From Spirochaetia bacterium (lineage in GTDB: Bacteria; Spirochaetota; Spirochaetia; SZUA-6; Bin103): a DNA stretch of 64,000 nucleotides. How positions within the stretch are numbered: the first letter of the stretch is position 1; each line of letters starts with the position of its first letter. The notes beneath the pieces are model-generated. The model was not told the DNA's origin. It saw nothing but the letters and a program-made list of their open reading frames with translations, and made no database searches. Where the stretch lies: contig OZ241863.1 of the NCBI GenBank assembly GCA_965203055.1, positions 448,001 to 512,000 on the forward strand, written 5' to 3'. A program made the translations under genes and the position numbers. Shown here piece after piece: positions 10,118 through 46,757 of this stretch.

Positions 10118-10271
10118 ACTCCTCTCCAGCGCCGCTCGGCGGCGGCACTCACGGACAACGGTAGATAATCTACCAGATTCTGCCGTATAGTCCAGACAGA
10201 CTTACGCCACCGCCCGGGGACCCTCCGGCGGCCGGACCGGCCTGCCTCCGGCAGGCGGCAGAGGAGTGGCC

Positions 10272-10526
10272 ATGGGACAACGCGGTGAGTTGTTCAGCAC
10301 CCGCGCGAACACCGCGAAACGGACCTATTTCTTCAACGTCAAGGAAAATCGCATCGGCGACCTGTTCCTCAACATCGTCGAGAGCCGCAAGCGCGAGGCG
10401 CCGGACGGCGCCGGGCGCGGCTTCGAGCGCCAGTCGGTGATGGTGTACGAAGAGGACCTGGCGGCGTTCATCGCCGCCTTCGACGAGGCCGTGGGGTACG
10501 CCCGCCGCAACCGCCGGCGAAGTTGA
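10272..10526 (+). CDS. PUR-family / DUF3276 nucleic-acid-binding protein
   Basis: [50 protein letters not shown]. Confidence 0.85.
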
Positions 10527-11070
10527 TGCGGAACGAGTGGCGGTGGATCGGCGAGCGGCCGTGCAGGCGCACCAGAAAGCGGTGCTGCGGCGTGGCGTAT
10601 CCCTTGTGTTCCTGAAACCGATACGCCGGCTCGATGCGCGCGTAGCGGGTCATGAAGCGGTCGCGCTCCGTCTTGGCGATGATCGAGGCGGCCATGATCT
10701 CCGGTACCGTGGCGTCTCCCTTGACGATGGCGGCGCACGGCACGGCCAGCGGCAGGCGAAAGCGGCCGTCGATCAGCACCTCGTCGGGCTGGACGCGCAG
10801 GGCGCGCAGGGCGCGCCACATCGCCAGCAGCGACGCGTGGTGGATGTTGATGCGGTCGATCTCCTCGGCGGAGCACCAGCCGGTGGCCCACGCCGTCGCC
10901 CGGCGCCGGATCACGGCGGCTGCGGCGGCGCGTTCCTCGGCGGTGAGCTGCTTGGAGTCGTTCAGGCAGGCCGCCGGAAACCCCCGCGGCAGCACCACCG
11001 CGGCCGCGGTGACCGGTCCGGCCAGGGGGCCGCGGCCCGCCTCATCGATACCGCAACGCAGCACTGACAC
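10468..11070 (-). CDS. rnhB: Ribonuclease HII
   Basis: [40 protein letters not shown]. Confidence 0.97.
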
Positions 11071-11171
11071 CGCGCCAGCATAGCGCCGCGCCGCCCTCCG
11101 GCACAGGCCCCGCTCCGGACAGCGTTTGACCGGGCTGCGCGCCCGGTGCTACGGTGGCGGCGAACTGGGAG

Positions 11172-33160: not shown

Positions 33161-35412
33161 CGCACGTCGACTCGCACCTGCACGTGCGCGGCGAATCGCA
33201 GTACGTGGACGACGCGCCGCCGCCGCCGGGGATGCTGCACGCCGCGGTGTTCGGCTCCCCCAAGGCGCACGGCGTCATCACCCGGCTCGCCGCCGACCGG
33301 GCGCGTGCGGCCCCCGGCGTGGCGGCGGTGCTCACCGCGGCCGACATCCCCGGCGTCAACCGCTTCGGCCCGATCATCGAGGACGAGCAGTTGCTGGTGG
33401 AGCGCGAGGTCTGCTTCATCGGCCATCCCATCGCCGTCGTGGTCGCCCGCAGCGCGCACCGGGCGCGGCAGGCGCGCGACCTGATCGAGGTCGAGATCGA
33501 CGACCTGCCGGTGGTGGTCGACCCGCGCGCGGCGTTCGCGCGCGGCGACCTGATCCATCCGCCGCGCACCATGGCGATGGGCGACGTGGCCGGCGCCTGG
33601 CGGGAGTGCGCGCTGGTGGTGGAGGGGCGCTGCGAGATCGGCGGCCAGGAGCATCTCTACCTGGAGACGCAGCGCTGCCGCGCGGTCCCCCTGGAAGACG
33701 GCGCGATCCGGGTCTTCTCCTCCACCCAGGGGCCGGCCGCGGTGCAGCACGTGACCGCGGCCGTGCTCGGCAAGCCGATGCATCAGGTGGAGGTCGACGT
33801 GAAGCGGCTCGGCGGCGGCTTCGGCGGCAAGGAGGACCAGGCCACCCACTGGGCGGCGATGGCGGCGCTGGCCGCCGCGCATCTGGACGCGCCGGTGGAG
33901 CTGGTGCTGAACCGGCCGGACGACATCAGGATGACCGGCAAGCGCCATCCCTACTCCGCCGACTTCAAGATCGGCCTGACCGCGGACCGCAAGATCCTCG
34001 CCTACGAGGCGACCTTCTATCAGAACTCCGGGGCGTTCGCCGACCTCTCCCCGCCGGTGCTGGCGCGCACGCTGTTCCACGCTACCAACGCCTACTTCAT
34101 CCCCAACGTGCGGGTGACCGCGGCGCCGTGCCGCACCAACCTGCAGCCGCACACCGCCTTTCGCGGCTTCGGCGGGCCGCAGGGGATGTTCGTGATCGAG
34201 GCCGCGATCAACAAGGCGGCCGACGCGCTGGGGATCGAGGCGGCGGCGATCCAGCGCGCCAACCTGCTGCGCGACGGCGACCGGTTCCATTACGGCCAGC
34301 GGGTGGAGGCGAGCCGCGCCGAGCGGACCTGGGACGAGCTGACGGCGGCCTTCGCGGTCGATGCGATCCGGCGGCGGGCGGCGGCGTTCAACCGCGCCAA
34401 CTTCGCGGTCAAGAAGGGCTGCGCGCTGATGCCGGTCTGCTTCGGCATCTCCTTCACCAAGAGCCACCTCAATCAGGGCAACGCGCTGGTCCACGTCTAC
34501 GCCGACGGCAGCGTGAGCGTGACCACCGGCGGCATCGAGATGGGGCAGGGCATCAGCAGCAACGTCGCCGCGGTGGTGGCGCGCACCTTCGGCATCGAGC
34601 CGCGGCGGGTGCGGGTGGAGAGCACCAACACCACGCGGATCGCCAACATGTCGCCGAGCGCCGCCAGCGCCACCACCGACCTGAACGGCAACGCCGCGGC
34701 CATCGCCGTCGAGACGATTCTCCGGGGCATGCGGGAGGTGGCGGCCGGGGAGCTGGGCGCGGCGGAACCGGGCGCGGTGACCATCGCCGGCGAGCGGGTG
34801 CGCGTGGCCGGCGAGCCGGCCGGCATGAGTTGGCAGGACCTGGTGGGCCTCACCTACCGCGCGCGCCGGCGGCTGTCGGCGCACGGCTACTACGCCACGC
34901 CCGGCCTCCACTACGACGAGGAGCGCGAGCGGGGGCGGCCGTTCGCCTACCACGTCTACGGCGCCGCCGTGTTCGAGGTGACCGTCGACTGCCTGCGCGG
35001 CACCTGCGCCGTGGATCAGGTGAAGATCGTCCACGACCTGGGCCGCTCCATCAATCCGAGCGTCGACCGCGGCCAGGTCGAAGGCGGGCTGGCGCAGGGC
35101 ATGGGCTGGATGACGCTGGAGGACCTGCAGTGGGACCGGGAAGGCCGCTGCCTCTCCCACGCGCTGTCGACCTACAAGGCGCCGGACGTCTACTTCATGC
35201 CGGACGACATGGCGGTCAAGTTCCTGGAACCGGAGCGCAACCCCTACGGTCCGCTCGGCGCCAAGGCGGTCGGCGAGCCGCCCCTGATGTACGGCATCGG
35301 CCTGTTCTTCGCCATCCGCAACGCGATGAAGGCATTCCGCCCCGGCGCCGACCTCCGCCTCGACGCCCCCATGACCCCGGAACGCGTGCTGCTCGACCTG
35401 CACCCCGGATGA
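33157..35412 (+). CDS. xdhB: Xanthine dehydrogenase molybdopterin-binding subunit
   Basis: GTG overlaps the xdhA stop; GGQEHLYLE, KRLGGGFGGKE, TAFRGFGGPQG, GGIEMGQG, KAVGEPPLM. Confidence 0.96.
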   Translation: MTHVDSHLHVRGESQYVDDAPPPPGMLHAAVFGSPKAHGVITRLAADRARAAPGVAAVLTAADIPGVNRFGPIIEDEQLLVEREVCFIGHPIAVVVARSAHRARQARDLIEVEIDDLPVVVDPRAAFARGDLIHPPRTMAMGDVAGAWRECALVVEGRCEIGGQEHLYLETQRCRAVPLEDGAIRVFSSTQGPAAVQHVTAAVLGKPMHQVEVDVKRLGGGFGGKEDQATHWAAMAALAAAHLDAPVELVLNRPDDIRMTGKRHPYSADFKIGLTADRKILAYEATFYQNSGAFADLSPPVLARTLFHATNAYFIPNVRVTAAPCRTNLQPHTAFRGFGGPQGMFVIEAAINKAADALGIEAAAIQRANLLRDGDRFHYGQRVEASRAERTWDELTAAFAVDAIRRRAAAFNRANFAVKKGCALMPVCFGISFTKSHLNQGNALVHVYADGSVSVTTGGIEMGQGISSNVAAVVARTFGIEPRRVRVESTNTTRIANMSPSAASATTDLNGNAAAIAVETILRGMREVAAGELGAAEPGAVTIAGERVRVAGEPAGMSWQDLVGLTYRARRRLSAHGYYATPGLHYDEERERGRPFAYHVYGAAVFEVTVDCLRGTCAVDQVKIVHDLGRSINPSVDRGQVEGGLAQGMGWMTLEDLQWDREGRCLSHALSTYKAPDVYFMPDDMAVKFLEPERNPYGPLGAKAVGEPPLMYGIGLFFAIRNAMKAFRPGADLRLDAPMTPERVLLDLHPG

Positions 35413-37592
35413 GCATCGAACGCGACTTCGACGTTCCCATGATCGCCGGCCTGGCGCTGCGGGAGAAGCAGATACAGCAGAACTACCGTCCGGTCATTGG
35501 CGTTCACAAGTGGTTTGCGCGCCGTCCCGGCACGCTGTTCCGCGGCCTCCTGCTGGCCGAATTCGGAACCGGCCCATTGCAAGACACGTTCTTTGCCGGC
35601 AATGACTTGCTCGGCCGGCGCATCGCCGACCCGTTCATGGGCGGCGGCACGCCCCTGATCGAGGCGAATCGACTCGGCTGCGACGTGCAGGGATTCGACG
35701 TCAATCCGATGGCCGCCTGGATCGTACGCGAGGAGATCGACCATCTCGATCTGGCCGCGTACGGACGGGCCGCCGGGAGCCTGGTCGACACGCTGCGCGG
35801 CGAGATCGGGCCGTACTACCGCACCTTCTGCCCGCGTTACGGCGACGCCGAGGTGCCGGTGAAGTCGTTCCTGTGGGTCAAGACGCTCGCCTGCGCGGGG
35901 TGCGGCGAGTCGATCGATCTGTTCCCCGGATACCTGCTGGCGGCGAACCGGCGCCACCCGACCAACGTGCTCGTCTGCGCCGCGTGCGGCGATCTCAACG
36001 AGGTAGCGGACCGCGACGATCCAGGGGGATGCGCTGCCTGCGGCCGCGCGCTCCGGTTGACGGGGCCGGCGCGCAGAGGCCGCTGCGATTGCCCCCGTTG
36101 CGGGCATCCGAACCCCTATCCGGGCAAGTCCGGCCGCCCCTTGCAGCATCGCCTGTTCGCCATCGAATACCACAATCACCGGCGGAAGGGCGAGCATCGG
36201 GGACGCTTCTTCAAGCGGCCCGACGCGGACGACCTGGCGCGCGCGAACGCGGCCGGCGAACGCTGGCGGCGGCTTGCGCCGCGCTTCGTCCCCGACGACG
36301 CGATCCCGCCGGGCGACGAGACCGGCCGACTGCACCGCTGGGGATACACCCGCTACCGCGACCTGTTCAACGGGCGCCAGCTTCTCGGTCTGGAGTTGAG
36401 TTGCCGCCTCGTTTCCCAGGTCGAGGACCGGCGGTTGCACCGCGCGCTGGCAACCAATCTGTCCGATCTGTTGCGCTATCAGAACCTGCTCTGCCGCTAC
36501 GATCCCATGGCGCTCAAGGCGCTGGACATCTTTTCCGTCCATGGCTTCCCGGTAGGATTGATCCAGTGCGAGTCCAACCTGCTCGGGATTACCGGTGAGA
36601 ACGGGGCAAACGTCGGCTCCGGCGGTTGGACCAACATCATCGACAAGTACGCCAAGGCGAAACGCTATTGCGCCGCGCCGTTCGAGGTGCGCCGCCACGG
36701 CGCGCGCAACCTGCAGGTGCCGATTACCGGTGAGTGGATCGGCGAGCAGCGCGACGGCCGGCGGCGGGCGGTGGGCATTCGTTGCGCCGACGCGACGCAG
36801 GTGGAGCTTCCGGCCCGCAGCCTCGATGCCGTGTTCACGGATCCGCCCTACTTCGGCAACGTCCAGTACGGCGAGCTGATGGACTTCTGCTACGTATGGC
36901 TCCGCCGGCTGGCCGGCAACCGAGCCGATGGCTTCGACCGCCGTTCCACGCGGTCACCGCGAGAGCTGACCGGGAACACCACCGGGGAACGCGGCCTCGA
37001 TCATTTCACCGAAGGACTTGCCGGCGTCTACACGCGCATGGCCCGCGCCTTGAAGCCGGGTGCGCCGCTGGCGTTCACGTTCCATCACAACAAGCTGGAA
37101 GCCTACTACGCCGTCGGAATCGCGATTCTCGATGCCGGGCTGGTCTGTTCGGCGTCGCTGCCATGCCCGGCCGAAATGGGAGGTTCGATCCACATCCACG
37201 GCACCGGATCGTCGATCATCGACACCGTGTTCGTATGCCGCGCTACCGGTACGGTGCCGCGCCGCTGGCTGGCCGGCACCTCGGAGGAGGTCGCGGCCCT
37301 CGTTGCCAAAGACGTCACCTTGCTGGAGGCTGCAGGCCGCACGCCTACTCGCGGCGATACCCGGTGCATGGTCTTTGGTCATCTGACCCGTCTGGCGGCG
37401 TGGAATCTGAGGCGCAGTTGGGACGTGAACCTGCCCACCGCGCAGAAGGCGGCCACGTTCGCGGCAGCCGTTGCCCACATGGGCGCCCCGGAGGCGATCA
37501 TTGCAGCCGTGCTTCCGGCCGCCGCGTCACCGGGGCCGCTCTTCGCCGCGGCGCTACACGACCAGGAAGATCACTATGCCGTTCCCTTTTGA
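35409..37592 (+). CDS. Amino-DNA methyltransferase with Zn-ribbon insert (DUF1156-like)
   Basis: ATG overlaps the xdhB TGA; VHKWFARRP, DPFMGGGT (motif I), four CxxC pairs, TDPPYF (motif IV). Confidence 0.85.
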   Translation: MSIERDFDVPMIAGLALREKQIQQNYRPVIGVHKWFARRPGTLFRGLLLAEFGTGPLQDTFFAGNDLLGRRIADPFMGGGTPLIEANRLGCDVQGFDVNPMAAWIVREEIDHLDLAAYGRAAGSLVDTLRGEIGPYYRTFCPRYGDAEVPVKSFLWVKTLACAGCGESIDLFPGYLLAANRRHPTNVLVCAACGDLNEVADRDDPGGCAACGRALRLTGPARRGRCDCPRCGHPNPYPGKSGRPLQHRLFAIEYHNHRRKGEHRGRFFKRPDADDLARANAAGERWRRLAPRFVPDDAIPPGDETGRLHRWGYTRYRDLFNGRQLLGLELSCRLVSQVEDRRLHRALATNLSDLLRYQNLLCRYDPMALKALDIFSVHGFPVGLIQCESNLLGITGENGANVGSGGWTNIIDKYAKAKRYCAAPFEVRRHGARNLQVPITGEWIGEQRDGRRRAVGIRCADATQVELPARSLDAVFTDPPYFGNVQYGELMDFCYVWLRRLAGNRADGFDRRSTRSPRELTGNTTGERGLDHFTEGLAGVYTRMARALKPGAPLAFTFHHNKLEAYYAVGIAILDAGLVCSASLPCPAEMGGSIHIHGTGSSIIDTVFVCRATGTVPRRWLAGTSEEVAALVAKDVTLLEAAGRTPTRGDTRCMVFGHLTRLAAWNLRRSWDVNLPTAQKAATFAAAVAHMGAPEAIIAAVLPAAASPGPLFAAALHDQEDHYAVPF

Positions 37593-38646
37593 GGTCAGCT
37601 TCGCAGAGATTCGGGCTGATCCGGATGCTTACGTGGACGCGGTGTTCGGCGCTCTCCATTCCGAGTTCATGCTGATGCCCCGCGGCAAGGGATTCGTGGA
37701 GTTCAACACGTTCGAAGCAGGCTACGAGACGTTGAAGCGGGCCACCGCGGGTTTCCGGGACGTCACTCCGGAGACCGTCACGCGAGCGATATTCGAAGTG
37801 CCGGTGACGCTGTTGGTGCTGCGCTGCATTCTCGGCTTCACTCCCTCTGAGTGGGCCGCTTACGCGACGGGCTACACCGGCGTCGAGATCACCCAGGGTG
37901 CGGCGCGAACCATTGACCGCGCAGTCCGAATAAACCCGGGAGCAGCCCTTACGGGGCGAGGAGCGGTGACCGAAGACCGAGTCCGGGCACTGGTCGCCGC
38001 CGCCTGTCATCTTCTTGAATCCGGAGTGCCGGTGGACGTTCCTCACGACAGCCTCCACCGATTCGACAAGGCCGATACCAGAGAGGGACTTTCCGGTGTC
38101 CGCTTGATGGCGGACTTGGGTGTCCCCTATTCCATGCTGTTGTATGAGCGTTTCCTGGGCCGGCCGTTTGCCGCTCACCGCGATTCCGTGAGTGAGCTGG
38201 TCGGAAACCTGGTTGAGAGCGCCATCGAAGACGTGCTGACCCGCGCCGGGATCAGCTTTCGCAAGACCGGACGAGCGGAGCGGCTGCCGGGATTCGATCA
38301 GGCTCCCGACTTCGTCATCCCCAACGAGTTCAACCCGCAGATCGTGATCGAGGCCAAGCTCACCGAAGACGACGGTACGGCACGCGACAAAGTCACGCGC
38401 GTCCAGCACCTGGCCTCGCTCGGCGCCGAAGGCCGTCCTTCCGAACAGCCGGCATTCGAAGTAGTCGCCTGCATCGCCGGCCGGGGCTTTGGCGTACGCC
38501 GCGAAGACATGCGCAAGCTGTTGCTCGCCACCCGAGGCAAGGTCTTCACGTTGCAGAACATCCGGCAACTCGTGGAGCACACCCGCCTCCGTGAGTTCCG
38601 CACACGGTCAGATCATCGCCCCCGACCCGACGGACCGTCAGGCTGA
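37576..38646 (+). CDS. Putative PD-(D/E)XK restriction endonuclease
   Basis: APDFVIP..IVIEAKLTEDDGTARDK; overlaps the end of the methylase. Confidence 0.75.
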   Translation: MPFPFEVSFAEIRADPDAYVDAVFGALHSEFMLMPRGKGFVEFNTFEAGYETLKRATAGFRDVTPETVTRAIFEVPVTLLVLRCILGFTPSEWAAYATGYTGVEITQGAARTIDRAVRINPGAALTGRGAVTEDRVRALVAAACHLLESGVPVDVPHDSLHRFDKADTREGLSGVRLMADLGVPYSMLLYERFLGRPFAAHRDSVSELVGNLVESAIEDVLTRAGISFRKTGRAERLPGFDQAPDFVIPNEFNPQIVIEAKLTEDDGTARDKVTRVQHLASLGAEGRPSEQPAFEVVACIAGRGFGVRREDMRKLLLATRGKVFTLQNIRQLVEHTRLREFRTRSDHRPRPDGPSG

Positions 38647-38791
38647 GGTGCTTTATCCGGGGGAAGTGCCATGTAGTTGGCTGCGACGAGTGGACGTTCA
38701 GTTGGCGAAGACCATGGAAGATATCTGTGGTGCGCTGGCGGTGTTCAAACGGGACGTATCGGTCCGACACACACCGGAGGTGTTCGAATGA
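38612..38791 (+). pseudogene. C-terminal stub of a DarT-like (DUF4433) DNA ADP-ribosyltransferase
   Basis: PTDRQAEVLYPGEVP matches the DarT QAExL catalytic strand; no N-terminus; its stop overlaps the next ATG. Confidence 0.6.
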
Positions 38792-40426
38792 AGGAAGGCA
38801 ACCTGTTTTTCGAACGATGCTATCGCTGATGCGGCGCGCGCAGGGCATCGTCAAGACGGTGCCGGCGGCTCGAGCGACCGTGGCGCCCGTATCCGGCGTT
38901 CATCGCTTTGGGCAGCATACGGAGACGCCTTGGGATGGATCAGCGAGCTGACCGATAAAGACGGACTCAGACGGAGGACCGATGGCGCGCCGCTGTCAGA
39001 GCCTGTGGCATGGACACGCCGGATCGGCGGTCGTGCCGGTATCAACGTGCGGCTTCCTCGTGGTTGCTACTCGGACGACTCGCAACTGCGGCTGGCGACC
39101 GGACGCGCCATCAGCGCGGGCGGTTTCGACGTGGAGGCTTTTGCCAAGGTCGAGCTTCCGGTATGGCTGAGCTACGCTCTTGGTGCGGGAAAATCCACGA
39201 CTGCGGCGGCGGAGAACCTTGCGAGACCGAGGTCTTCTTGGTACGCGAATCAATTCAAGGGTTGGACTGAATCGGGTGGAAATGGCGCGGCGATGCGCAT
39301 CCAGCCCCACGTGTGGGCTGCGCGGACACCGGACGATCCAGAGAGCTTTCTTCCGGATGTTGTGCGCAACGCGATCTGCACCCATTCGCATCCCACAGGT
39401 CTGATGGGAGCAGTGCTCCATGCACTGTGTGTCGGCCATGCGATAGCTGACGCACGTTGCCCAACTTCCAACGAGCTTGCCAAATCGATCGAAGTTGCTA
39501 AACGGCTACCGGAAATCATGGCGAATGACGTTGAATTCCGATACTGGCGCGTTGCATTTGAGCAGGTAGCAGGAGACCTTAGCGAAGCCTGGGACGTCGT
39601 GGTAGAAGATACACGGGGAGCAGTATGAATAGTCAACACAATCGCGAAGAACGTGACCCGAGACCGCTACAAAAACATGGTGAACGGGCTGCGTCTGCGT
39701 GATCCTGCGCGTCGAGGAAGCGGAATGCTTACGGCCGTGGCTGCTATCGCACTGACTTGGTGGGAGCCCCGCCCCGCGGAGGCAATGCGAATCGCCGCAA
39801 ACGAAGTCGGTACGGACACCGACACCATCGCGACGATGGCCGGCGCCATCGTCGGCGCCGTGGCGGACGCGGATCCACCGGTAGAAGTGATCGACGCCGA
39901 TCTCTTTCGTGCCGAGGCAGATCGATTGGCGGCGATTGCCGCCGGGGGCTACTCGCCGCCGAGTCACCGATATCCCGATCTGCTGCGCTGGTCGGCACCG
40001 GCATCGCGTGCTGACGCACTGATATCATCGAAGAATGGTCGCTTGAGGGTGTGTGGTCTAGGCGGCGTGTCGGAGGAAAAGAGCGAGCCGATCAAGTCCG
40101 CGCACGCAGGTTTCCTGTGGCAATGGATCAGGCTTGAGTACGGGCAGACCCTTCTGATCAAACGTCGTGTCAACGTACGATCCGTCGATGATGTAGACGA
40201 TGGAACGTCCGCTGCAGGAGGATCAAACGGACATGACGTCCGATCGAGGCAAGTGACTTCTGACAGGGGGGATCTGAATACGGTGCTCTCGTACGTAAAG
40301 GATCATATCGGCAGCGATGAGGAGATAGGGCGTGCGCTACGGCAGGTAGTGAACAAGAGCACACCAGGCGAAATTCACGAGTTCACAGGCAAGCTCATCG
40401 ATCTTATTCGTTCCGGGGCCCGGTGA
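38788..40426 (+). pseudogene. ADP-ribosylglycohydrolase (ARH/DraG family), inactivated
   Basis: GGAGG RBS and ATG 38788, frameshift near the T5 run at ~38806; LWAAYGDALG, YSDDSQL, GNGAAMRI, THSH, DTDTIATMAGAI; in-frame TGA at 39626-39628. Confidence 0.8.
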
Positions 40427-40464
40427 CTGTCTCGGTTGATGGCGGTCCGGTGCCGGCCTTGAAG

Positions 40465-40821
40465 TCAGCTGCCGCGGTAGGTGGTGTAGCTCCAGGGTGA
40501 GACCAGCAGGGGGACGTGGTAGTGGGTGTCGGCGGCGATGCCGAAGCGGATCGAGACCTGATCCAGGAACGGCGGATCAGGTAACGCCACGCCCGCGCCG
40601 GTGAAGTACTCGCCCACGTGGAACACCATCTCCCACCGGCCGGTGCGGAAGGCGTCCCCTGCGAGCAGCGGCGCGTCGCAGCGCCCGTCCTGATTGGTGC
40701 GGGCGGTCGCCACCAGGCGGCGTTCCGCGCCGGCGGAGCCGACGGCAAATAGCTCCACCCGGATGCCGGCGCCCGGCCGGCCCTGCGCGGTATCGAGGAC
40801 GTGGGTAGTGAGCTGGCCCAT
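40465..40821 (-). CDS. uraH: 5-hydroxyisourate hydrolase
   Basis: [38 protein letters not shown]. Confidence 0.97.
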
Positions 40822-40822
40822 T

Positions 40823-41674
40823 TCATTTCCTCCGCAGCGTCGCTTCGATCTGGCCGTTGGGTTCGTCGGTCGGCAGGAACAGCCGCCCCCGGGCGTCGCG
40901 GCCGAAGGCGGACAGATTGATCGCCAGGTAGTGGACGTTGGGCATCGCCAGCGTGATTTCGGTGATGGCCGGCGCCGCGGCCAGGGCGGCCTCTCCCATG
41001 CGGTAGAGGCTGTCCTGCACCGAGTGGCTGAAGGTGGCCGCGAAGACCCGCAGCAGGGCGGCGCGGATGGCGGCGGCGGTGCCGCTGAAGTCAACCCCCG
41101 GGCCGTGACCGGCGTCAGCGAAGCGCCACGCCGCGCGCAGCCGAGTGGCCAGGATACGGTCGGTGGTCGGCGCCAGGGTGGTGTACTCATCCTGCGGGAA
41201 GCCGGTAAATCCCGACTCGGTGGTCTTCATGATCGCCAGGTCGCGCACCCCGCCCACGATCTCGCGCGTGGACCGGGTGGCCGTGACGCGGGAGAACGGC
41301 GTCCCGCCTTCGGCGCGAACGAAGCTGTGATCGTGGGGCTGCCCGTCGATCCGCAGCCGGCCCCAGACCGTCTCTTCGACTTCGACCTGCGCTTCCGAGA
41401 CCTGCGGGTACCGATCCAGAAAGCACTGCGCGATCGCCAGCGCGAACGGCTCGTTGGCAGCATCGACGTGCTCGAAGGCCAGCACGTTTACCAGATTCTT
41501 CATCGTGTCGGTGGGTACCACGGAGGAATTGTCCGCCGCGGTGTAGGCGCGGGCGAAGTCGCCGTCCAGGGTCACCTTGACGCGCGCTTCGCGCACCTCG
41601 TGGCGCTGCCGGGCGCGTTGCACCCGCAGCACCCGCACGTTGGCCTTTCCATACTGCTGTCCAACAAACGGCAT
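40823..41674 (-). CDS. pucL: Factor-independent urate oxidase (uricase)
   Basis: [46 protein letters not shown]. Confidence 0.95.
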
Positions 41675-41686
41675 CGACGTTGCCCC

Positions 41687-41923
41687 TTAGCGTGAGAAGC
41701 CGTTGGCCGGGTGCATGCTCTGGACAGTGTCCGCCTCGGCCTGGGGCAGCTCGTTGCTGCAGTTCAGATCCTTGGGTCTCCTGCGAGCCGCTACCTTGAG
41801 CAACTCCCGTAATTCCCGTTCCGCCCTGGGATCAAGCGGCCGGCCGAGCCGGGGCTCCCCCTCGATACTTTCGATGAGATCTCGTTCCTCGTCGTCAAGA
41901 TAGGTGAGTGGTGAATCAGTCAT
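41687..41923 (-). CDS. Small hypothetical protein, possibly a truncated antitoxin
   Basis: AGGAGGAG RBS; LDDEERDLIESIE resembles the N-terminus of CopG/BrnA-like antitoxins, but no RHH part follows. Confidence 0.4.
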   Translation of the reverse strand: MTDSPLTYLDDEERDLIESIEGEPRLGRPLDPRAERELRELLKVAARRRPKDLNCSNELPQAEADTVQSMHPANGFSR

Positions 41924-41944
41924 TTCTCCTCCTTACCTGGCCGG

Positions 41945-42382
41945 TCAGGTCAGGTGTTCGATCTGGACGCCGCCCCAACGGGCGTCGAGGTATTCGGCGA
42001 CCAGGCGGCGGTGGCAGCGGTGCGGCTGATGCTCGCTGCACAGCAGGCAGCCGCCGTCCAGAAGCGCGCGCGGGATCGTCTCTGCCACCCGCCGCTCGCG
42101 CATCAGGTCCAGGAATCGCGCCTCGTAGGTGTCCCAATCGATGCGCTTCTTGCGGTAGTCGCTGAGCAGGGCCTGAGTGGGTGCGAGGCGCGGCTCGTGG
42201 ACGTAGTCGATGCCGCAGAGCTGATCCAGAAACCAGAACAAGTCGTCCTGCTTGGCGAAACCGGATAGCTGCGAGGTATTGTTGAGCCGTACGTCCAGCA
42301 CCCGTTTGACGCCCGATTCCCGGAGCAGTCCGAAGAACCGACGCGCGGACTTCCTGGTGAAGCCGATGGTGGCGATTCTCAC
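41945..42382 (-). CDS. DUF488 family protein
   Basis: TIGFT, VLDVRL, LLCSE..PHRCHRRLVAEYL. Confidence 0.9.
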   Translation of the reverse strand: MRIATIGFTRKSARRFFGLLRESGVKRVLDVRLNNTSQLSGFAKQDDLFWFLDQLCGIDYVHEPRLAPTQALLSDYRKKRIDWDTYEARFLDLMRERRVAETIPRALLDGGCLLCSEHQPHRCHRRLVAEYLDARWGGVQIEHLT

Positions 42383-42957
42383 GTCATCTCCTCGGCAACG
42401 AAGGCGACCCGCTGCGCCTGCCGCGCCAGCGCATGCGCGAGCAACTCCTCGCGTGATTGAAACAGATCGAACTGAATCAGGAGTCGGTCCAGCGTCTTCT
42501 CATGCGGTTCGAGCTCGCCATCGGCAAGGATGTGCGCGACCGCGACGCCCCGCGCCGCCAGCGCCGGGGCGACCAGCAGCGTGCGGTGACAGTCCAGCGG
42601 CTCCTTCTCGGCGCACATGAGCGCGGTGCGATGGCGCGCGGCGCTGTCCACGATCCGCGCCAGGCCGTCCCGAAACAAGCTGGTTCGGGCGACCAGCTCA
42701 TACCGAATCTGCCCGTCCCGGTAACAGGCGGGGTCGGCCGAGCGCCCGCCAAGCTCGCGCCCGAGGCAGGTATAGCGAATGCCGTGTTCCTTGAGCGCCG
42801 CGGACAACGCGTCTCGATTGAACTGCGGGCAGAAGCGGCTGAACGGCGCCGAACGCACGTCGGCCACGGCCGTGACGCCGTTGCTCGCCAACAGCTCCAG
42901 AAACGCTTCCAACGAGTGGTTGGAGTGGCCGATGGTGAGTACTTGGGGCGCGGTCAT
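42379..42957 (-). CDS. DUF488 family protein
   Basis: TIGHSNH, ADVRSAPFSR, LGRELGGR, LMCAEKEPLDCHR. Confidence 0.9.
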   Translation of the reverse strand: MTAPQVLTIGHSNHSLEAFLELLASNGVTAVADVRSAPFSRFCPQFNRDALSAALKEHGIRYTCLGRELGGRSADPACYRDGQIRYELVARTSLFRDGLARIVDSAARHRTALMCAEKEPLDCHRTLLVAPALAARGVAVAHILADGELEPHEKTLDRLLIQFDLFQSREELLAHALARQAQRVAFVAEEMT

Positions 42958-43643
42958 GATCGGCGATCGCATTCGATGATGGCAGCAATCAGCTTGTAGC
43001 GGAACTGCTGGTATCGTTCACCGAGGCTGATGGTCAGGTAGCACTCCCCGAGGTCATAGCCGCCGTCCAGCTTGGCGAGGTATTCGCGCTCGTACACCGG
43101 ATCGGTAACCCACAGCGCATAGTCCGCGCCGGCGTGGGAGAACCGCCCCTGCACGCGGCGTTTGCGGTTGCCGAATGCCTCCCCGGGGCTGAACACGACG
43201 AGCCTGATTCGCTCGGCGTGGACCAGGCGCAACGAACCGGACGGCGGCCGCATCGACTCTTCCGGTATCCGGTCGTTGCGCCCGTGGTAGGTGTGGCAAC
43301 CGTCGATCCAGAGCGGCGCCACCGGATCCCCCAGGGCCGGCAGATCGAACCACGACCACGTTCCCTCCTTGCGCCAGTAGCGGTCGGGGTCGAGCAACCA
43401 GTTTTCGGTTTGCCATCGATCCGGCCGCGGCTCCAGTACCGGCAGGCTGATGATGTCCAGCACCCGGGGGTCGCCGCCGTCCTCGTACTGGCGCTCATAT
43501 TCGGACACTTCCTGCCCGGGGCGGCCGCTCACCGGGCGGATCCAGTTACCGACCTGCCGGCCCGCCAGTTCGCGGCCGGCAATGCAGCGCCCGGCCAGCT
43601 TGCGCGAGTTCGCAAGGCACACCATTCGCTTGCGGTCGATCAT
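42954..43643 (-). CDS. Dual-OB-fold-type protein
   Basis: VCLANSRKLAGRCIAG..WIRPVS, QTENW, SLRLV, Y.LWVTDP, LTISLGE..YKLIAAII. Confidence 0.75.
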   Translation of the reverse strand: MIDRKRMVCLANSRKLAGRCIAGRELAGRQVGNWIRPVSGRPGQEVSEYERQYEDGGDPRVLDIISLPVLEPRPDRWQTENWLLDPDRYWRKEGTWSWFDLPALGDPVAPLWIDGCHTYHGRNDRIPEESMRPPSGSLRLVHAERIRLVVFSPGEAFGNRKRRVQGRFSHAGADYALWVTDPVYEREYLAKLDGGYDLGECYLTISLGERYQQFRYKLIAAIIECDRRS

Positions 43644-44884
43644 GGCCCGGCGCCCTCCGCCGCCCGGATCACGAGGCGCAGCTCGCTGTCGTCGATCAGC
43701 CGATACTCCGGCAGCCGCCCGGACAGCTCGCGGCATTCCCGGCGAATGATCGGCACCCCGTCGCCGCGCGTGTCCATCAGCCGCGTGCGGCCCACGCCGG
43801 ACGGCGCCGCGCAACGGGCCAGCAGCGACACGATCAACTCGTTCCGGTTCGCTTGGCGCAGGTGCAGGCTGTCCGGCGTGAGGCTGTTGACCAGCCCGCC
43901 GGGGACGTACAGCTCCAGGCGGTCGCCGAACAGGTGCAGGCGCACCCGGGCGCCCGCGATCGAGTAGTCGCGGTGCGCGACGGCGTTCACGATCGCCTCG
44001 AATACGGCGCGTTCGCTGAACTGGGGACGCTCCGAACGGGCAGTCTCCTTGGTTGCGCGGACCAGCATGTTGCGCCGTACGAAGTGCAGCGCTTCCGCGA
44101 TCTGCTCGTCCAGCGGCCCGCCGAGGTCGCGGGCGTCGGTCTGGTAGTTGGCGGCGGTCCGCTCGCCGGCATAGCTGACCGCCTGAATGTACGCGTGGGG
44201 CAGCCACCGCTGCGGGTCCGCGGTGCAGAGCAGCACGCCGGCGAGGGTCAGCCGCGCCCGTCCGTCCGGGTCATCGGCGACGATGCGGAGCTTACGCAAC
44301 TGGTCGTCAGGGTCAGCCGGAGAGTCGTCGAGGTCGCCGCGCACGAACCGCTGCGCCAGCGAGTAGTGCAGATCGGCCGGGGCGGTGGCCGGCACGATCG
44401 ATTCATCGAACCGGATCACTCGACTCTGGCTGCGTTGCTGGAACAACCGTGCGAGCACCTCCGGCGCCAGTTCTCGCTTGGAGCTGCCGATCCGGTGGAA
44501 GTAGCCGCCCGGGCTCTTGTGCACGAACAAGCTGCGTTCGACGTCGACGCGCAGCACCGCGCCGGTCCCGCCCTCCGCGGGCTCCAACTCCTGCTTGCGG
44601 ATGTCGGCATCGAGCGCCGGTTGCACCAGGTCGTTGCAGATTTCTCGCACCCAGCTCTCCACTACGTCCAGGTCGTCCAGCGGGATGCCTTGGATGCGCC
44701 GCGTGTTGTCGTCCACGCCGACGATCAGCGTGCCGCCGCGGCTGTTGGCAAACGCCGCCAGTTCGTCAGCCAGCGCGCGCCGCTCCGGGGCACGGACTCT
44801 GCCACCGGTGACGTGAACGCTCTTGAACTCCAGCCGCGCATCCTCGCCCAAGCGGATGCGCCGCGCAAGATCGCGGTCGGCCAT
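43640..44884 (-). CDS. AlbA_2 (Schlafen-like) domain protein with HATPase_c_4 C-terminus
   Basis: GEDARLEFK, LAAFANSRGGTLIVGVDD; EAIVNAVAHRDYS..DRLELYVPGGL..RN. Confidence 0.88.
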   Translation of the reverse strand: MADRDLARRIRLGEDARLEFKSVHVTGGRVRAPERRALADELAAFANSRGGTLIVGVDDNTRRIQGIPLDDLDVVESWVREICNDLVQPALDADIRKQELEPAEGGTGAVLRVDVERSLFVHKSPGGYFHRIGSSKRELAPEVLARLFQQRSQSRVIRFDESIVPATAPADLHYSLAQRFVRGDLDDSPADPDDQLRKLRIVADDPDGRARLTLAGVLLCTADPQRWLPHAYIQAVSYAGERTAANYQTDARDLGGPLDEQIAEALHFVRRNMLVRATKETARSERPQFSERAVFEAIVNAVAHRDYSIAGARVRLHLFGDRLELYVPGGLVNSLTPDSLHLRQANRNELIVSLLARCAAPSGVGRTRLMDTRGDGVPIIRRECRELSGRLPEYRLIDDSELRLVIRAAEGAGP

Positions 44885-44897
44885 CGCGGTGGGGATT

Positions 44898-46757
44898 CTA
44901 CGGTATCACGGGGACGTGCGCGAAGCGGGTGACGTCGACCAGGCCGAGATCGGAGATGCGCAGCTCGGGGATGACCACCAGGGCGAGCAGGCTGAGCTGC
45001 ATGTAGCCATTGTTGAGCGCGCAGCCGCAGTCGCGCATCGCCTGCATCACGCGCGCCGACTTGGCCGCGACCGCCTCGGCGCGCTCGGTGGACATCAGGC
45101 CGCCGACCGGCAGCTCCACCAGCGCGGTTACCCGGCCCGCGCGCACCACCACCACCCCGCCGCCCGCGGCGGCCAGCGCATTCACCGCCTGCGCCATGTC
45201 GCCGGCGCAGGTGCCGGCCACCAGCAGGTGATGACTGTCGTGGGCCACCGTCGAGGCAACGGCGCAACGGCCCCGGAACCCGAATCCCTTCACGAAGCCG
45301 TTCACCACCGTACCCGCCCCGCGGTGGCGCTCCACCAGCGCCAGCGGCAGCACGTCATTCGCCGGATCGGGCTGCACCGCGCCGTCAATCACCGTCAGGG
45401 CGGCGGTCAGATGACGGGTCGGCGCCTGGTTCTCCAGCACGCCGATGACGTTGGCCGTCACCGTGCCGTCCGCCTGCCCCGCAGGCACCACGAAGTCCGC
45501 CGCGGCCACCGGGCGGGCAAGGCGCACCGACTGCCGGAACCGCGGCTCATGCTGCCAGACGGGCAGCTCCAACAGCAGGCGGCCCGCTTCGGCGGCCACC
45601 TCGCCGTTGACGATCACCAGGCCGGCGGCAAAGTGGTCCAGGCTGTCGGCCACCACCAGGTCGGCATAACGCCCCGGAGCCAGGCTCCCCAGGTCGCGCT
45701 CCACGCCGAAGTGCTCGGCGGTATTGATGGTCATCATCTGCAGCGCCACCAGCGGATCGCACCCCAGCTCCACCGCGTGGCGCAGCACCCGGTCCATGTG
45801 CCCCTCCTGCACCAGGGTGGCGGCGTGCACGTCGTCGGTGCACAGGATGAACCGGCGCGGGTCCAGGCCGCGCTCCGTCACCGCGGTGATCTGCGCAGCT
45901 ACGTCGTGCCAGGCCGAACCGAGCCGCAGCATCGGGCGCAGGCCGCGGCGGGCGCGCTCCACCGCATCGACCTCGCGCGTGTTCTCGTGATCGTCGGCCG
46001 GACCGCCGGCCAGGTAACCATGAAACGGGCGCCCCAGATCGGGACTGGCGTAGTGGCCGCCGACCGTCTTGCCGGCGCGCATGGCGGCCGCCACTTCCGC
46101 ATGCATGGCCGGGTCGTTGGCGGCCAGGCCGGGGAAGTTCATCATCTCGCCCAGTCCGATGACGCCCGGCCACGTCATCGCTTCTTCCACCTCGCGCGGG
46201 GTGATCACCGCGCCCGGCGTCTCCAGTCCCGGCGCCGAGGGCACGCAGGAGGGCATCTGCAGGAACACGTGGATCGGCATGGCGGCCGCCTCGGCCAGCA
46301 TCATGCGCACGCCGTCGAGGCCGAACACGTTGGCGATCTCGTGCGGGTCGGCGAACAGCGCGGTGGTGCCGTGCGGCAGCACCGCGCGCACGTACTCGGT
46401 AATGGTGCACATGCTGCTTTCCACGTGCATGTGGCCGTCGGTCAGCCCCGGCACCAGGAAGCGGCCCTCCGCCTCCAGCACGCGGGTGCCGGCGCCGGTG
46501 CAGTAGCCGGCATCCTCCACGACGCAGGCGATGCGCCCGCAACTCACCGCAATGTCGATCCCCTCCACCACCTCGCGGGTGAGCACGTTCACCCAGCGGC
46601 CGTTGCGAATCACCAAGTCCGCCGGCGCCCGCCCGGCGGCCACGTCCACCAGCCGGGTCGCTGCCTCGTGCCATGCTCTGCGCTGCCGCATCGGCGCCGA
46701 TGGTAACCTGAAACTGCGGCGGCGGTCTCGCCGGCTTGCGCCGGCTGGGCGGCCCAT
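44898..46757 (-). CDS. ade: Adenine deaminase
   Basis: PGLTDGHMHVESS, DPHEIANV, GLGEMMNFPG, DDHE, CTDD, STVAHDSH. Confidence 0.95.
   Translation of the reverse strand: MGRPAGASRRDRRRSFRLPSAPMRQRRAWHEAATRLVDVAAGRAPADLVIRNGRWVNVLTREVVEGIDIAVSCGRIACVVEDAGYCTGAGTRVLEAEGRFLVPGLTDGHMHVESSMCTITEYVRAVLPHGTTALFADPHEIANVFGLDGVRMMLAEAAAMPIHVFLQMPSCVPSAPGLETPGAVITPREVEEAMTWPGVIGLGEMMNFPGLAANDPAMHAEVAAAMRAGKTVGGHYASPDLGRPFHGYLAGGPADDHENTREVDAVERARRGLRPMLRLGSAWHDVAAQITAVTERGLDPRRFILCTDDVHAATLVQEGHMDRVLRHAVELGCDPLVALQMMTINTAEHFGVERDLGSLAPGRYADLVVADSLDHFAAGLVIVNGEVAAEAGRLLLELPVWQHEPRFRQSVRLARPVAAADFVVPAGQADGTVTANVIGVLENQAPTRHLTAALTVIDGAVQPDPANDVLPLALVERHRGAGTVVNGFVKGFGFRGRCAVASTVAHDSHHLLVAGTCAGDMAQAVNALAAAGGGVVVVRAGRVTALVELPVGGLMSTERAEAVAAKSARVMQAMRDCGCALNNGYMQLSLLALVVIPELRISDLGLVDVTRFAHVPVIP

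Follow-up and report, generated by a model that had tools for sequence, protein, structure and literature searches.

In the 64,000-nucleotide stretch of Spirochaetia DNA analysed here (the window), four genes, designated A to D, lie on the minus strand between ade and the uricase gene, and are followed by a small open reading frame, E. The features of the locus and its surroundings are as follows.

44898–46757: ade, flank of the cassette (Pfam)
43640–44884, minus strand: gene A, 414 amino acids, stand-alone Schlatpase (Schlafen/AlbA_2 plus GHKL-type HATPase_c_4)
42954–43643, minus strand: gene B, 229 amino acids, DuOB (dual OB-fold) protein, PDC-M45A
42379–42957, minus strand: gene C, 192 amino acids, DUF488 protein (TIGHS type) with a helical C-terminal extension, PDC-M45B
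41945–42382, minus strand: gene D, 145 amino acids, DUF488 protein of the N3a (“active”) subclade, PDC-M45C
41687–41923, minus strand: ORF E, 78 amino acids, with an AGGAGG ribosome-binding site, inside the insert
41675–44897, minus strand: inserted cassette of 3223 nt, bounded by the stop of ade and the start of uricase
40823–41674: uricase, flank of the cassette (Pfam)
38930–40426, plus strand: ARH remnant, with an in-frame stop at 39626–39628
38489–38791: DarT C-terminal fragment, sub-threshold (21.0 bits against a cut-off of 22.5)

The listing of open reading frames, their translations, and a reading of the sequence confirm that the four genes are intact and co-oriented, and that each is joined to the next by a start/stop overlap of 4 nt (ATGA at 43640–43643 for A–B, ATGA at 42954–42957 for B–C, and GTGA at 42379–42382 for C–D). 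In G408, a genome of the same genus without DuOB, ade directly abuts uricase; this empty site identifies 41675–44897 as an insert, bearing out the insertion between ade and uricase proposed from the sequence-only reading, and shows that genes A to E came in as one block. The cassette is also present at the same ade/uricase junction in L004. It resides within a purine-catabolism operon, separated from its flanks by spacers of 12–13 nt, and a search of the locus for a promoter-like site belonging to the cassette found none. ORF E, passed over in the sequence-only reading, has a strong AGGAGG site, is present in a single copy in the genome, has no match in Pfam, PADLOC, NCBIfam, or PHROG, and was not found at E ≤ 1e-5 in 80 related loci from other groups; next to the degraded cassette of G411 is a piece with 76% identity to it.

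The Schlafen–ATPase gene and its DuOB and DUF488 partners

In Pfam, gene A is matched by SLFN_AlbA_2 (residues 14–139; 59.7 bits, cut-off 25.3), followed by HATPase_c_4 (residues 311–405; 57.6 bits, cut-off 26), with no HTH match, and the protein ends 9 residues past the HATPase_c_4 match. It also matches positions 60–432 of the 1121-position PADLOC pAgo model (E = 1.8e-19). A recent preprint describes the Schlatpase as a supradomain of SLFN-pAgo (RzAgo) composed of SLFN AlbA_2 (PF04326) and a GHKL ATPase (PF13749); in its account, ATP binding (E314/N318) drives tetramer formation and tRNA is cleaved by the SLFN domain during phage defence; most Schlatpase proteins are small and stand-alone, many carry a C-terminal HTH, and the module is swapped among defence systems (Kuzmenko et al. 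2026). The Schlafen catalytic triad was defined in Yang et al. 2018, and the catalytic motif of bacterial Schlafens is given as Ex4(E/D)xK by Perez Taboada et al. (Nat Microbiol 2026), who assign 19.2% of bacterial Schlafens to a HisKinase-HTH class. Of the seven systems tested in E. coli in the latter study, the two that conferred phage protection were DUF262 and Ig-like fusions, and the HisKinase-type (Schlatpase-like) Schlafens, which were among the seven, were not among the protective ones (Perez Taboada et al. 2026). The term DUF488 is absent from the main texts of both 2026 studies, and DuOB and OB-fold are absent from the main text of the SLFN-pAgo preprint.

The E14-x4-E19-x-K21 motif and Asp59 of gene A align with Glu205, Glu210, and Asp248 of rSLFN13. 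Across 60 gene A sequences, D59, E296, and N300 never vary, and at least 90% retain E14, E19, and K21; the ATP-site motif E296-x3-N300 of the GHKL domain corresponds to E314/N318 of RzAgo by motif, not by residue-level alignment. Gene A is a Schlafen nuclease domain with an intact catalytic motif joined to a GHKL ATPase domain, for which activity is predicted from sequence, and the retained catalytic motif agrees with the initial assignment of this gene as a Schlafen-type nuclease or sensor. The genome contains 25 matches to gene A, one of which lies beside DuOB. The two closest paralogues (69% and 54% identity) are located directly downstream of matches to the PADLOC Ppl model (3e-107 and 2e-151), close paralogues adjoin Ppl-like or HEC-01-like genes, and the 69% paralogue beside Ppl nests within the clade of the cassette's A gene in a FastTree tree read without regard to support values.

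Gene B is matched by Pfam DuOB (PF22557; 219.9 bits, cut-off 27, E = 4.9e-65). Its AF2 model (pLDDT 90.4) is all-beta and folds as two beta barrels, each an OB domain, as the OB-fold reading of this gene had anticipated. The best fold matches, all of them weak, are to the tandem-OB DNA binders CST, HIN, RPA, POT1, and LEF-3, with a top VIA Z of 5.7 (LEF-3; 165 aligned, rmsd 6.7), Foldseek E values of at least 1.2e-3, and TM scores of at most 0.46. Among 15 longer DuOB relatives, nine are RecQ-family fusions, and DuOB is located at the C-terminus in P0132, the one fusion scanned for domain order; other fused forms are AlbA_2+HATPase_c_4+DuOB, HATPase_c_4+DuOB (on 7 contigs), and DuOB+DUF488.

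Genes C and D both exceed the Pfam DUF488 cut-off (86.8 bits, E = 2.2e-24 and 81.7 bits, E = 8.5e-23, respectively), and gene D also passes that of DUF488-N3a (43.8 bits, cut-off 27, E = 3.8e-11), which C-type proteins reach only weakly (best E = 0.0011 among 59). The two therefore belong to different subtypes, as had been proposed, and neither is of the “inactive” N3i type (gene D, 15 bits against a cut-off of 27). Both also carry the C-x-E-x5-C-H-R motif first noticed in the translations, as CAEKEPLDCHR in C and CSEHQPHRCHR in D. All 59 C-type and 65 D-type sequences share C115, E117, C123, H124, and R125; also invariant are T8, G10, H11, S12, D33, and R35 in gene C, and C112 and R126 in gene D. 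The AF2 model of gene C (pLDDT 91.5) has as its nearest folds PTP-type phosphatases, a baculovirus RNA 5'-phosphatase, and tetrapyrrole-methylase N-domains (Foldseek probability ~1.0; VIA Z 7.4–9.2); the likeness to the PTP fold has Z 7.4–8.2 at a Foldseek probability of ~1, and these fold scores are middling. The canonical C-x5-R P-loop of phosphatases is not present in the DUF488 proteins, in which the loop is C115-x9-R125 with E117, C123, and H124. The predicted active site would have the cysteine at a strand end, a long loop bearing the glutamate and the Cys-His pair, and the arginine at the start of the next helix. DUF488 is present in 7 of 14 control genomes and, to our knowledge, is a large family without a known activity.

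Prior cataloguing, linkage and mobility of the cassette

Genes B, C, and D, adjacent and co-oriented, match the phage-defence candidate PDC-M45 A/B/C of PADLOC-DB v2.0.0 end to end: PDC-M45A with E = 7.8e-92 (305 bits; residues 1–226 of gene B on profile positions 1–226 of 230), PDC-M45B with E = 6.2e-79, and PDC-M45C with E = 1.7e-71, the last two at full length. The PDCs are 145 candidates predicted through “guilt by embedding” (Payne, Hughes, Fineran and Jackson 2024, bioRxiv 10.1101/2024.01.29.577857), and PDC-M45 is not named in the main text of that preprint. The sequence-only reading had named an existing catalogue entry as a result that would count against it; three of its four genes prove to be catalogued already. 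The three-gene core is a known defence candidate, and what sets this locus apart is the Schlatpase gene A joined to it.

Searching with gene B yielded 80 related loci, all close relatives of one cassette (B at least 61% identical), so that their shared order could stem from a single unit that spread recently and need not count as many independent confirmations. The complete A-B-C-D order is found in 49 of these 80 loci, spanning about nine phylum-level groups, which agrees with the earlier expectation that the gene set would co-occur elsewhere. A full gene A is present in 64 loci and a partial one in 7, while the remaining 9 hold the core without A (2 of them at contig ends). The A–B spacing falls between −8 and +33 nt in 50 of 63 pairs, and the 4-nt C–D overlap is kept in 48 of 63 related loci. 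The correlation between pairwise identities in A and those in B (r = 0.76, a value reached by 0 of 999 permutations) is as strong as that among the core genes (r = 0.63–0.68). Identity among the related loci is 61–81% across about nine phylum-level labels, and the mean column identity in alignments of the cassette genes (59–72%) is unusually high for an arms-race gene.

The cassette is patchy, decaying, and moving between sites. DuOB occurs in 5 of 401 genomes of the phylum and in 7 of 31 relatives, two of the 7 being broken, with one copy per genome and none in most relatives; within a single family the site can be empty or occupied, one copy is degraded and sits at a different site, and another is located elsewhere. 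Of 20 loci scanned, 8 have clear restriction–modification, defence, or mobile genes within 4.5 kb, a raw count uncorrected for the background rate in these genomes, and the other 12 have only metabolic or unannotated neighbours. On named plasmids, one PDC-M45 core sits beside CBASS and another inside a type III CRISPR locus; the core occurs on plasmids without a Schlatpase, and on a Citrobacter plasmid DUF4326 replaces the second DUF488. In the window, a DUF1156/HmaB/PglX-like methylase is located ~4 kb from the cassette.

A candidate anti-phage cassette and its alternatives

The best explanation, to which we give roughly an even chance, is that the locus is a horizontally mobile four-gene anti-phage cassette in which a stand-alone Schlatpase is joined to a PDC-M45 core of DuOB and two motif-intact DUF488 enzymes. 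It builds on directly observed gene content, motifs, folds, linkage, mobility, and patchiness, from which we infer a defence role and the following ordered steps. DuOB, as a tandem-OB protein, would bind the single-stranded DNA, DNA end, or fork of an invading or replicating element; the two DUF488 phosphatase-fold enzymes may then use as substrate a phosphate-linked group on that end; and the Schlatpase, by analogy with its tested relatives, would be the executing nuclease, undergoing ATP-driven oligomerisation and then cutting tRNA to stop phage growth. The broad outline drawn earlier, a nuclease or sensor, an OB-fold DNA binder, and paired Cys-dependent enzymes in defence or nucleic-acid processing, fits this explanation; its DarT link does not. 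Several observations weigh against the anti-phage cassette: HisKinase-type Schlafens were not among the protective systems reported by Perez Taboada et al., defence neighbours are lacking at 12 of the 20 scanned loci, the conserved gene order may stem from a single recent spread, conservation is high for an arms-race gene, and the RecQ fusions would suit DNA repair equally well. In addition, the fold matches of the models are middling (Z at most 9.2 for C and 5.7 for B; Foldseek E at least 1.2e-3), the DUF488 loop departs from the phosphatase C-x5-R pattern, and the cassette resides in a purine-catabolism operon where the search for a promoter-like site belonging to it found none.

The absence of gene A from some cores, on plasmids and in the 9 A-less loci, is what would be expected if two separate systems travel together, the Schlatpase being a self-contained defence gene or orphan effector and PDC-M45 an independent trio with no functional coupling between them. 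The stand-alone nature of most Schlatpases and the exchange of their module among defence systems (Kuzmenko et al. 2026) point the same way, as do the position of only one of the 25 genomic matches to gene A beside DuOB, the pairing of close paralogues with Ppl-like or HEC-01-like genes, and the placement of the 69% Ppl-side paralogue inside the cassette's A clade in the tree read without support values. Such independence is nevertheless rather unlikely given that a full A adjoins B in 64 of 80 loci, usually at 1–33 nt or with a 4-nt overlap, that A–B co-variation at least equals that among the core genes, that A–B fusions exist (one form on 7 contigs), and that A to E arrived together in the insert. 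Most annotations of COG2865-type AlbA_2/HATPase_c_4 proteins call them transcriptional regulators, and gene A could likewise serve only as the regulator of the operon, leaving the effector chemistry wholly to the DUF488 pair. The C-terminal HTH of many Schlatpases (Kuzmenko et al. 2026) and the frequency of the HisKinase-HTH class (Perez Taboada et al. 2026) favour this role, and paralogues of gene A adjoin defence genes of several kinds, a pattern common for regulators. However, gene A has no HTH match and ends shortly after HATPase_c_4, and its conserved nuclease motif (E14, E19, K21, and D59) and ATP site (E296 and N300) would be needless for a pure DNA-binding regulator, making a purely regulatory gene A highly improbable.

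A housekeeping-like role in DNA repair or in DNA-end or lesion processing, in which DuOB would deliver the two DUF488 proteins to stalled forks or damaged single-stranded DNA, with Schlatpase here or RecQ elsewhere as the nucleic-acid-handling ATPase, would account for the RecQ-family fusions, the very high conservation across phyla, and the loci lacking defence neighbours. DNA-end processing is reportedly a prediction made for part of the DUF488 clade by Burroughs and Aravind in 2023, which we count in favour of repair. Against it stand the patchy and partly broken distribution, with a single copy per genome and none in most relatives, the movement between sites within one family, the plasmid copies beside CBASS and inside a CRISPR locus, and the partnership with a Schlafen nuclease of the kind shown to be an antiviral tRNase (Kuzmenko et al. 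2026; Perez Taboada et al. 2026); we regard repair as an improbable explanation. The least credible alternative, and a very unlikely one, is a DarT-type DNA ADP-ribosylation system, in which the DUF488 proteins would write, read, or remove ADP-ribose on DNA. This would be in keeping with the decayed ARH gene and the sub-threshold DarT fragment 1.5–3.5 kb away, and with the DUF4326 substitution on the Citrobacter plasmid, as phosphate processing on ADP-ribose derivatives is the role put forward for this related family (Iyer et al. 2022). However, of the DarT-like/ARH remnant reported earlier, the ARH part is real, whereas the “DarT-like” piece is a C-terminal fragment below the cut-off and the only DarT match in the genome (18.8–21 bits). 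Both pieces are decayed neighbours lying beyond uricase, outside the insert; genes A to E have no match to a DarT or macro domain; and the suggested co-occurrence of DUF488 and dual-OB genes with DarT-type systems finds no counterpart in the flanks of 20 scanned related loci, none of which has a DarT, macro, or ARH match at E ≤ 1e-6.

Within the anti-phage cassette reading, the DuOB–DUF488 trio may tentatively be viewed as a new front end for a Schlafen effector, detecting phage single-stranded DNA or ends, with an as yet undescribed Cys-dependent reaction at a nucleic-acid terminus that makes or reads a signal licensing tRNA cutting by the ATP-loaded Schlatpase. This specific coupling is rather unlikely; if true, it would explain why stand-alone HisKinase-type Schlafens tested alone gave no protection, and would supply the first biochemical function for DUF488. 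The PDC-M45 candidate is now tied to a Schlafen–ATPase module in a cassette kept across many phyla, and pairing with a Schlafen-type RNA-cutting enzyme, a module whose antiviral tRNA-cutting role was established only in 2026, provides a concrete, testable idea of how the trio works. It also gives the Schlafen effector family, a link between bacterial and human antiviral immunity, a set of partners encoded by several genes. Should the cassette instead be a repair module, it would mark a DNA-end chemistry not yet described.

Comparison with known systems

DarT–DarG, like the proposed cassette, is a defence system acting on single-stranded DNA, and the neighbourhood includes a decayed ARH gene and a fragment weakly matching DarT; unlike DarT–DarG, the four genes and the 20 scanned related loci contain no DarT or macro domain. 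The DUF488 proteins share with Cys-dependent PTP-fold phosphatases a Rossmann-like fold with a cysteine at a strand end and an arginine at the start of the next helix, but the phosphatase C-x5-R loop is replaced by C-x-E-x5-C-H-R, in which cysteine and arginine are 10 residues apart. In the RecQ–DuOB fusion proteins (P0130–P0138), DuOB is tied to a nucleic-acid-handling ATPase, as in the cassette; the partner there is a helicase, and gene B is 38–43% identical to their DuOB domains.

Gene A agrees with the Schlatpase or pSlfn “HisKinase” class in its two Pfam domains and in their order, with Ex4ExK and E-x3-N conserved, and the position of its paralogues beside Ppl-like genes resembles the exchange of Schlatpase modules between defence systems described by Kuzmenko et al. 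Unlike SLFN-pAgo, it lacks an Argonaute, NACHT, or RM subunit, and is a 414-residue stand-alone protein in a DuOB/DUF488 operon. The cassette shares with PDC-M45 the order of DuOB, long DUF488, and short DUF488, which is also found on named plasmids; unlike the three-gene PDC-M45 models, the operon is led by a Schlatpase gene, both here and in 64 of 80 close relatives.

Gene content and insertion site of the cassette

Four intact genes (A to D) lie on the minus strand at 41945-44884, joined by 4-nt start/stop overlaps, an arrangement proposed by the sequence-only reading and confirmed by both the ORF listing and the sequence. The junctions read ATGA between A and B (43640-43643) and between B and C (42954-42957), and GTGA between C and D (42379-42382), and Shine-Dalgarno-like runs of good quality precede B (GGAGGG) and D (GAGGAG).

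Genes of the cassette and its flanks
40823-41674: uricase, flank of the insert
41687-41923, minus strand: E, 78-aa ORF after D, AGGAGG site ahead of its start
41945-42382, minus strand: D, 145 aa, Pfam DUF488 and DUF488-N3a
42379-42957, minus strand: C, 192 aa, Pfam DUF488
42954-43643, minus strand: B, 229 aa, Pfam DuOB (E 4.9e-65)
43640-44884, minus strand: A, 414 aa, Pfam SLFN_AlbA_2 (residues 14-139) and HATPase_c_4 (residues 311-405)
44898-46757: adenine deaminase (ade), flank of the insert

The small ORF E has no family match in Pfam, PADLOC, NCBIfam or PHROGs, and the idea of a known antitoxin was rejected on this ground. A search of NCBIfam with A to E returned no family, and PHROGs gave no match for B, C or E; in PHROGs, A matches a family annotated 'DNA helicase' (1.6e-43) and D matches two families, both of unknown function.

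The flanking genes ade and uricase belong to a row of purine-breakdown genes, together with an amidohydrolase and OHCU decarboxylase. In G408, a genome of the same genus without DuOB, the genes run OHCU decarboxylase, amidohydrolase, ade, uricase and orf140, with ade and uricase as immediate neighbours, and this empty junction bears out the earlier claim of an insertion between the two genes. The insert of the window (41675-44897, 3223 nt, A to E) lies exactly at this junction and leaves spacers of only 13 and 12 nt at its edges. Direct repeats were sought around it, but the pairs found were short and chance-like, none of them convincing as flanking repeats, and a scan of 41500-45200 found no promoter-like and no terminator-like sites; the cassette may be transcribed from the host operon. 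The same junction is occupied by the cassette in a sister-genus genome (L004), where the stretch between D and uricase (L004:9107-10298) also contains a Uma2-family gene and the remains, in two pieces, of a second D gene (76-81% identity). In G410, of the same genus, an intact cassette resides ~2 Mb away from uricase. The genome G411 carries a decayed cassette downstream of orf140 (L118, G411:C1:792000-811000, at 8801-13947), which lacks D, has a frameshift in B and carries A in two parts separated by ~2.5 kb. Over its N-terminal part, this A has 96% identity to A of the window, compared with 78% for ade and 72% for uricase, which points to recent transfer of the cassette or recombination between lineages.

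Beyond uricase, the GC content falls to 0.59-0.64, and the following features are found.

Features of the window beyond uricase
33606-37592, plus strand: 1328-aa ORF; PADLOC DUF1156_MTase, HmaB and PglX-like methyltransferase matches (5e-20 to 1e-15)
37471-38646, plus strand: 391-aa ORF; no family match
38489-38791, plus strand: 100-aa ORF, probably a remnant; Pfam DarT, last 53 positions only (21.0 bits against a cut-off of 22.5)
38930-40426, plus strand: decayed ADP-ribosylglycohydrolase (ARH) gene; in-frame stop at 39626-39628
40404-40826, minus strand: 140-aa ORF; 4-nt overlap with the uricase stop, no Pfam match

The 1328-aa ORF has only sub-threshold Pfam matches, and its N-terminal 577-609 residues are kept near uricase in two same-genus genomes. 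The 391-aa ORF contains a D...E-x-K stretch (PDFVIP...IVIEAKL) with a putative likeness, by eye, to PD-(D/E)xK nucleases, and a 360-aa ORF occupies the opposite strand. In the ARH gene, the ~185 residues past the stop have no family match. The 140-aa ORF directly downstream of uricase is conserved in five related genomes (55-76% identity).

The PDC-M45 core and the Schlatpase gene

The four genes had been offered as a candidate defence or repair system; three of them match models of a known candidate, and the core of B, C and D is thus already catalogued. The PADLOC-DB models PDC-M45A, PDC-M45B and PDC-M45C match B (7.8e-92), C (6.2e-79) and D (1.7e-71) end to end. According to Payne et al. 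(2024 preprint), the PDC set comprises 145 systems that are candidates only, predicted because their homologues sit within BREX, DISARM or type I RM systems, and its main text does not name PDC-M45. Literature searches found no paper for PDC-M45 or for DUF488 together with ADP-ribosylation; among the matches listed, none was a paper on DuOB, and the DUF488 papers examined describe no function for this family.

The predicted structure of B (AF2, pLDDT 90.4) is all-beta and is composed of two halves. The best Foldseek matches, to CST, HIN-200, RPA, POT1 and RADX, are weak (E at least 1.2e-3, TM at most 0.46), as are those of VIA-wide, led by LEF-3 (Z 5.7, rmsd 6.7, 165 aligned) and followed by TEBP, HIN and RPA, yet all are OB-fold nucleic-acid binders. 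Sequence queries with B, C and D against solved structures gave only chance-level matches (E 0.2-0.7). Both DUF488 proteins carry C-x-E-x5-C-H-R, as had been noted earlier. The model of C (AF2, pLDDT 91.5) is matched in Foldseek by DUF442 phosphatase, PFA-DSP1, PRL and SsoPTP (E 1.3e-3 upward, prob ~1.0), and in VIA-wide by tetrapyrrole-methylase N-domains (Z 9.2-8.5), KAP phosphatase (Z 8.2), and SsoPTP and a baculovirus RNA 5'-phosphatase (each Z 7.4). The modelled strand 111-115 finishes with C115 and helix 124-134 begins around R125, and the two residues would thereby occupy the Cys and Arg places of PTP; C appears to differ from PTP by a 9-residue loop bearing E117, C123 and H124. Burroughs and Aravind (2023) reportedly assigned DUF488 to the rhodanese-phosphatase superfamily, with which this placement of Cys and Arg presumably agrees. 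An alignment of the C family (A1) shows a helical C-terminal extension with a partly conserved P-x-G-D-L-F loop, beyond which the tails are variable and basic; C of the window has a 7-residue deletion in this loop (IQFDLFQ, residues 162-168, window 42460-42480). A sliding-clamp peptide was considered for the C family and rejected, as only the internal, partly conserved 'GDLF' loop is present and no canonical clamp motif is found.

Judged by its sequence, gene A is a Schlatpase. This supradomain, AlbA_2 (PF04326) joined to a GHKL ATPase (PF13749), was named by Kuzmenko et al. (2026 preprint), who describe it in 60,692 of 103,533 prokaryotic Schlafen proteins; most of these are small, and some carry a short HTH. 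In SLFN-pAgo, tetramers formed on ATP binding (E314, N318) build the nuclease site of the Schlafen domain, and phage defence involves cleavage of tRNA (Kuzmenko et al. 2026 preprint). Protein A has no HTH, ending 9 residues past the ATPase match, and its match to the PADLOC pAgo model spans model positions 60-432 (1.8e-19). The catalytic motif of bacterial Schlafens, Ex4(E/D)xK (Perez Taboada et al., Nat Microbiol 2026), is present as E14-x4-E19-x-K21, and D59 aligns, in an alignment to chain 5yd0_A, with D248 of rat SLFN13, whose triad is E205/E210/D248 (Yang et al. 2018). D59, E296 and N300 never vary across 60 sequences of A from such cassettes, at least 90% of which also retain E14, E19 and K21. 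Two of seven bacterial Schlafens protected E. coli, these being DUF262 and Ig-like fusions and not of the HisKinase type (Perez Taboada et al., Nat Microbiol 2026).

Linkage of gene A to the core and the neighbours of related loci

A search with B, limited to one genome per species, yielded 80 loci with B at 61-81% identity, titled as MAGs of Spirochaetia, Binatia, Alpha- and Gammaproteobacteria, Vicinamibacterales, Latescibacterota, Longimicrobiales/Gemmatimonadetes, Dehalococcoidia, Thermodesulfobacteriota/Syntrophobacterales, Rhodothermales and others. A gene was counted as present at a coverage of at least 80% and an identity of at least 45%.

Gene patterns at the 80 loci (lower case, partial gene)
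ABCD: 49
-BCD: 8
aBCD: 6
ABC-: 5
AB--: 5
ABc-: 2
AB-D, aBC-, ABcD, AB-d, -BC-: 1 each

A is complete in 64 and partial in 7 of the 80 loci, and of the 9 that lack it, 2 are at contig ends. The 4-nt overlap recurs in 48 of 63 C-D pairs and 22 of 69 B-C pairs, and A and B are -8 to +33 nt apart in 50 of 63 pairs, the few outliers being artefacts of start-codon choice. Across the cassette loci, the pairwise identities of A and B are correlated (r 0.76, reached by none of 999 permutations) as strongly as those among B, C and D (r 0.63-0.68), which indicates inheritance as one unit, not physical contact, the loci being kin. Fifteen longer relatives of B were found, nine of them RecQ-family proteins, and domain order was checked in five; the fusion types include AlbA_2+HATPase_c_4+DuOB, HATPase_c_4+DuOB (7 contigs) and DuOB+DUF488, and in P0132, the sole RecQ fusion scanned for domain order, DuOB lies at the C-terminus. 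Where a fusion of neighbouring genes has a single member, read-through could have produced it artificially. A complex prediction of C and D with B as partner (score 0.00, mark 0.32) favours neither contact nor its absence.

DuOB has 3157 matches (E<=1e-3) in a set clustered at 90% identity and 2671 in the representatives at 50% identity, and occurs in 5 of 401 genomes of the phylum, in 7 of 31 relatives (including two broken copies), on 19 of 72,556 plasmids and in none of 50,697 phage records. On pAt1D1108a the core adjoins a CBASS operon, and on Allochromatium pAt1 it follows a PcfJ gene and has csx16 and csm6 on either side. A Citrobacter freundii IncFII plasmid (L099, NZ_CP110893.1, 4001-5664) carries DuOB, one DUF488 and, as third gene, DUF4326, adjoining parA and ccdAB; this arrangement is apparently recurrent on small plasmids of enterobacteria (27-29% identity to B). 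Each of six public runs contains at least half of the words sampled from the stretch, and four carry the label sponge metagenome.

The flanks of 20 related loci (within ~4.5 kb; 150 of 154 ORFs) were scanned against Pfam at E<=1e-6, and some ORFs were rechecked against PADLOC. Clear RM, defence or mobile neighbours were found in 8 of the 20, a raw count and not a measure of enrichment near defence genes; the other 12 have metabolic genes or nothing nearby.

Loci with RM, defence or mobile neighbours
L004: Uma2, PDC-M31A-like ATPase
L006: HsdM/HsdS, SLOG
L007: type III REase
L011: transposase, DUF5615
L016: HEC-01A-like ATPase, MT-A70
L026: HepT
L031: methylase-HNH
L063: RhuM/Fic, PDC-S01-like

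Possible roles and relation to known systems

The PDC-M45 core may work together with the Schlatpase, which would act as the effector of a mobile defence cassette; this is the leading account, though evenly poised, a defence role in itself is fairly probable, and any specific order of events in the mechanism is doubtful. A competing explanation, that A and BCD are two independent systems and mere neighbours, draws on the paralogues of A. In the window's genome, A finds 25 matches, compared with one DuOB and two DUF488. The two closest paralogues (L109 and L110; G000:C1:924208-925428, minus strand, and 3241013-3242251, plus strand), with identities of 69% and 54%, are each immediately preceded by a Ppl-model protein (905 aa, 3.4e-107, and 969 aa, 2e-151); Ppl-Schlatpase may be a gene set in its own right. 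At L110, two more unannotated genes, of 468 and 281 aa, follow the paralogue. A HATPase_c_4-only paralogue adjoins HEC-01A/B-like genes, another is frameshifted amid transposases, and no remnant of B, C or D lies beside the A paralogues of this genome. The Schlatpase is thus an exchangeable module, in line with its exchange among pAgo, NACHT and RM systems (Kuzmenko et al. 2026 preprint), and this keeps the explanation by mere neighbourhood alive, as an unlikely one, beside the shared inheritance of A and B.

The part of the sequence-only reading that combined a nuclease with an OB-fold binder and Cys enzymes, acting in conflict or nucleic-acid processing, fits the evidence. A repair or DNA-end-processing module is unlikely, and a role of A merely as regulator is improbable beside the retained nuclease and ATPase residues. 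The proposed link to DarT-type ADP-ribosylation did not hold up, as no DarT, macro or ARH domain occurs in any of the 20 flank-scanned loci, and a system of this kind is very improbable, the DarT-tail ORF and decayed ARH gene of the window notwithstanding.

The proposed mobile defence cassette would be known in its core, as PDC-M45, and distinct in the Schlatpase gene that leads this core. With the Schlatpase as described by Kuzmenko et al. (2026 preprint), A shares the AlbA_2 and GHKL ATPase domain pair.
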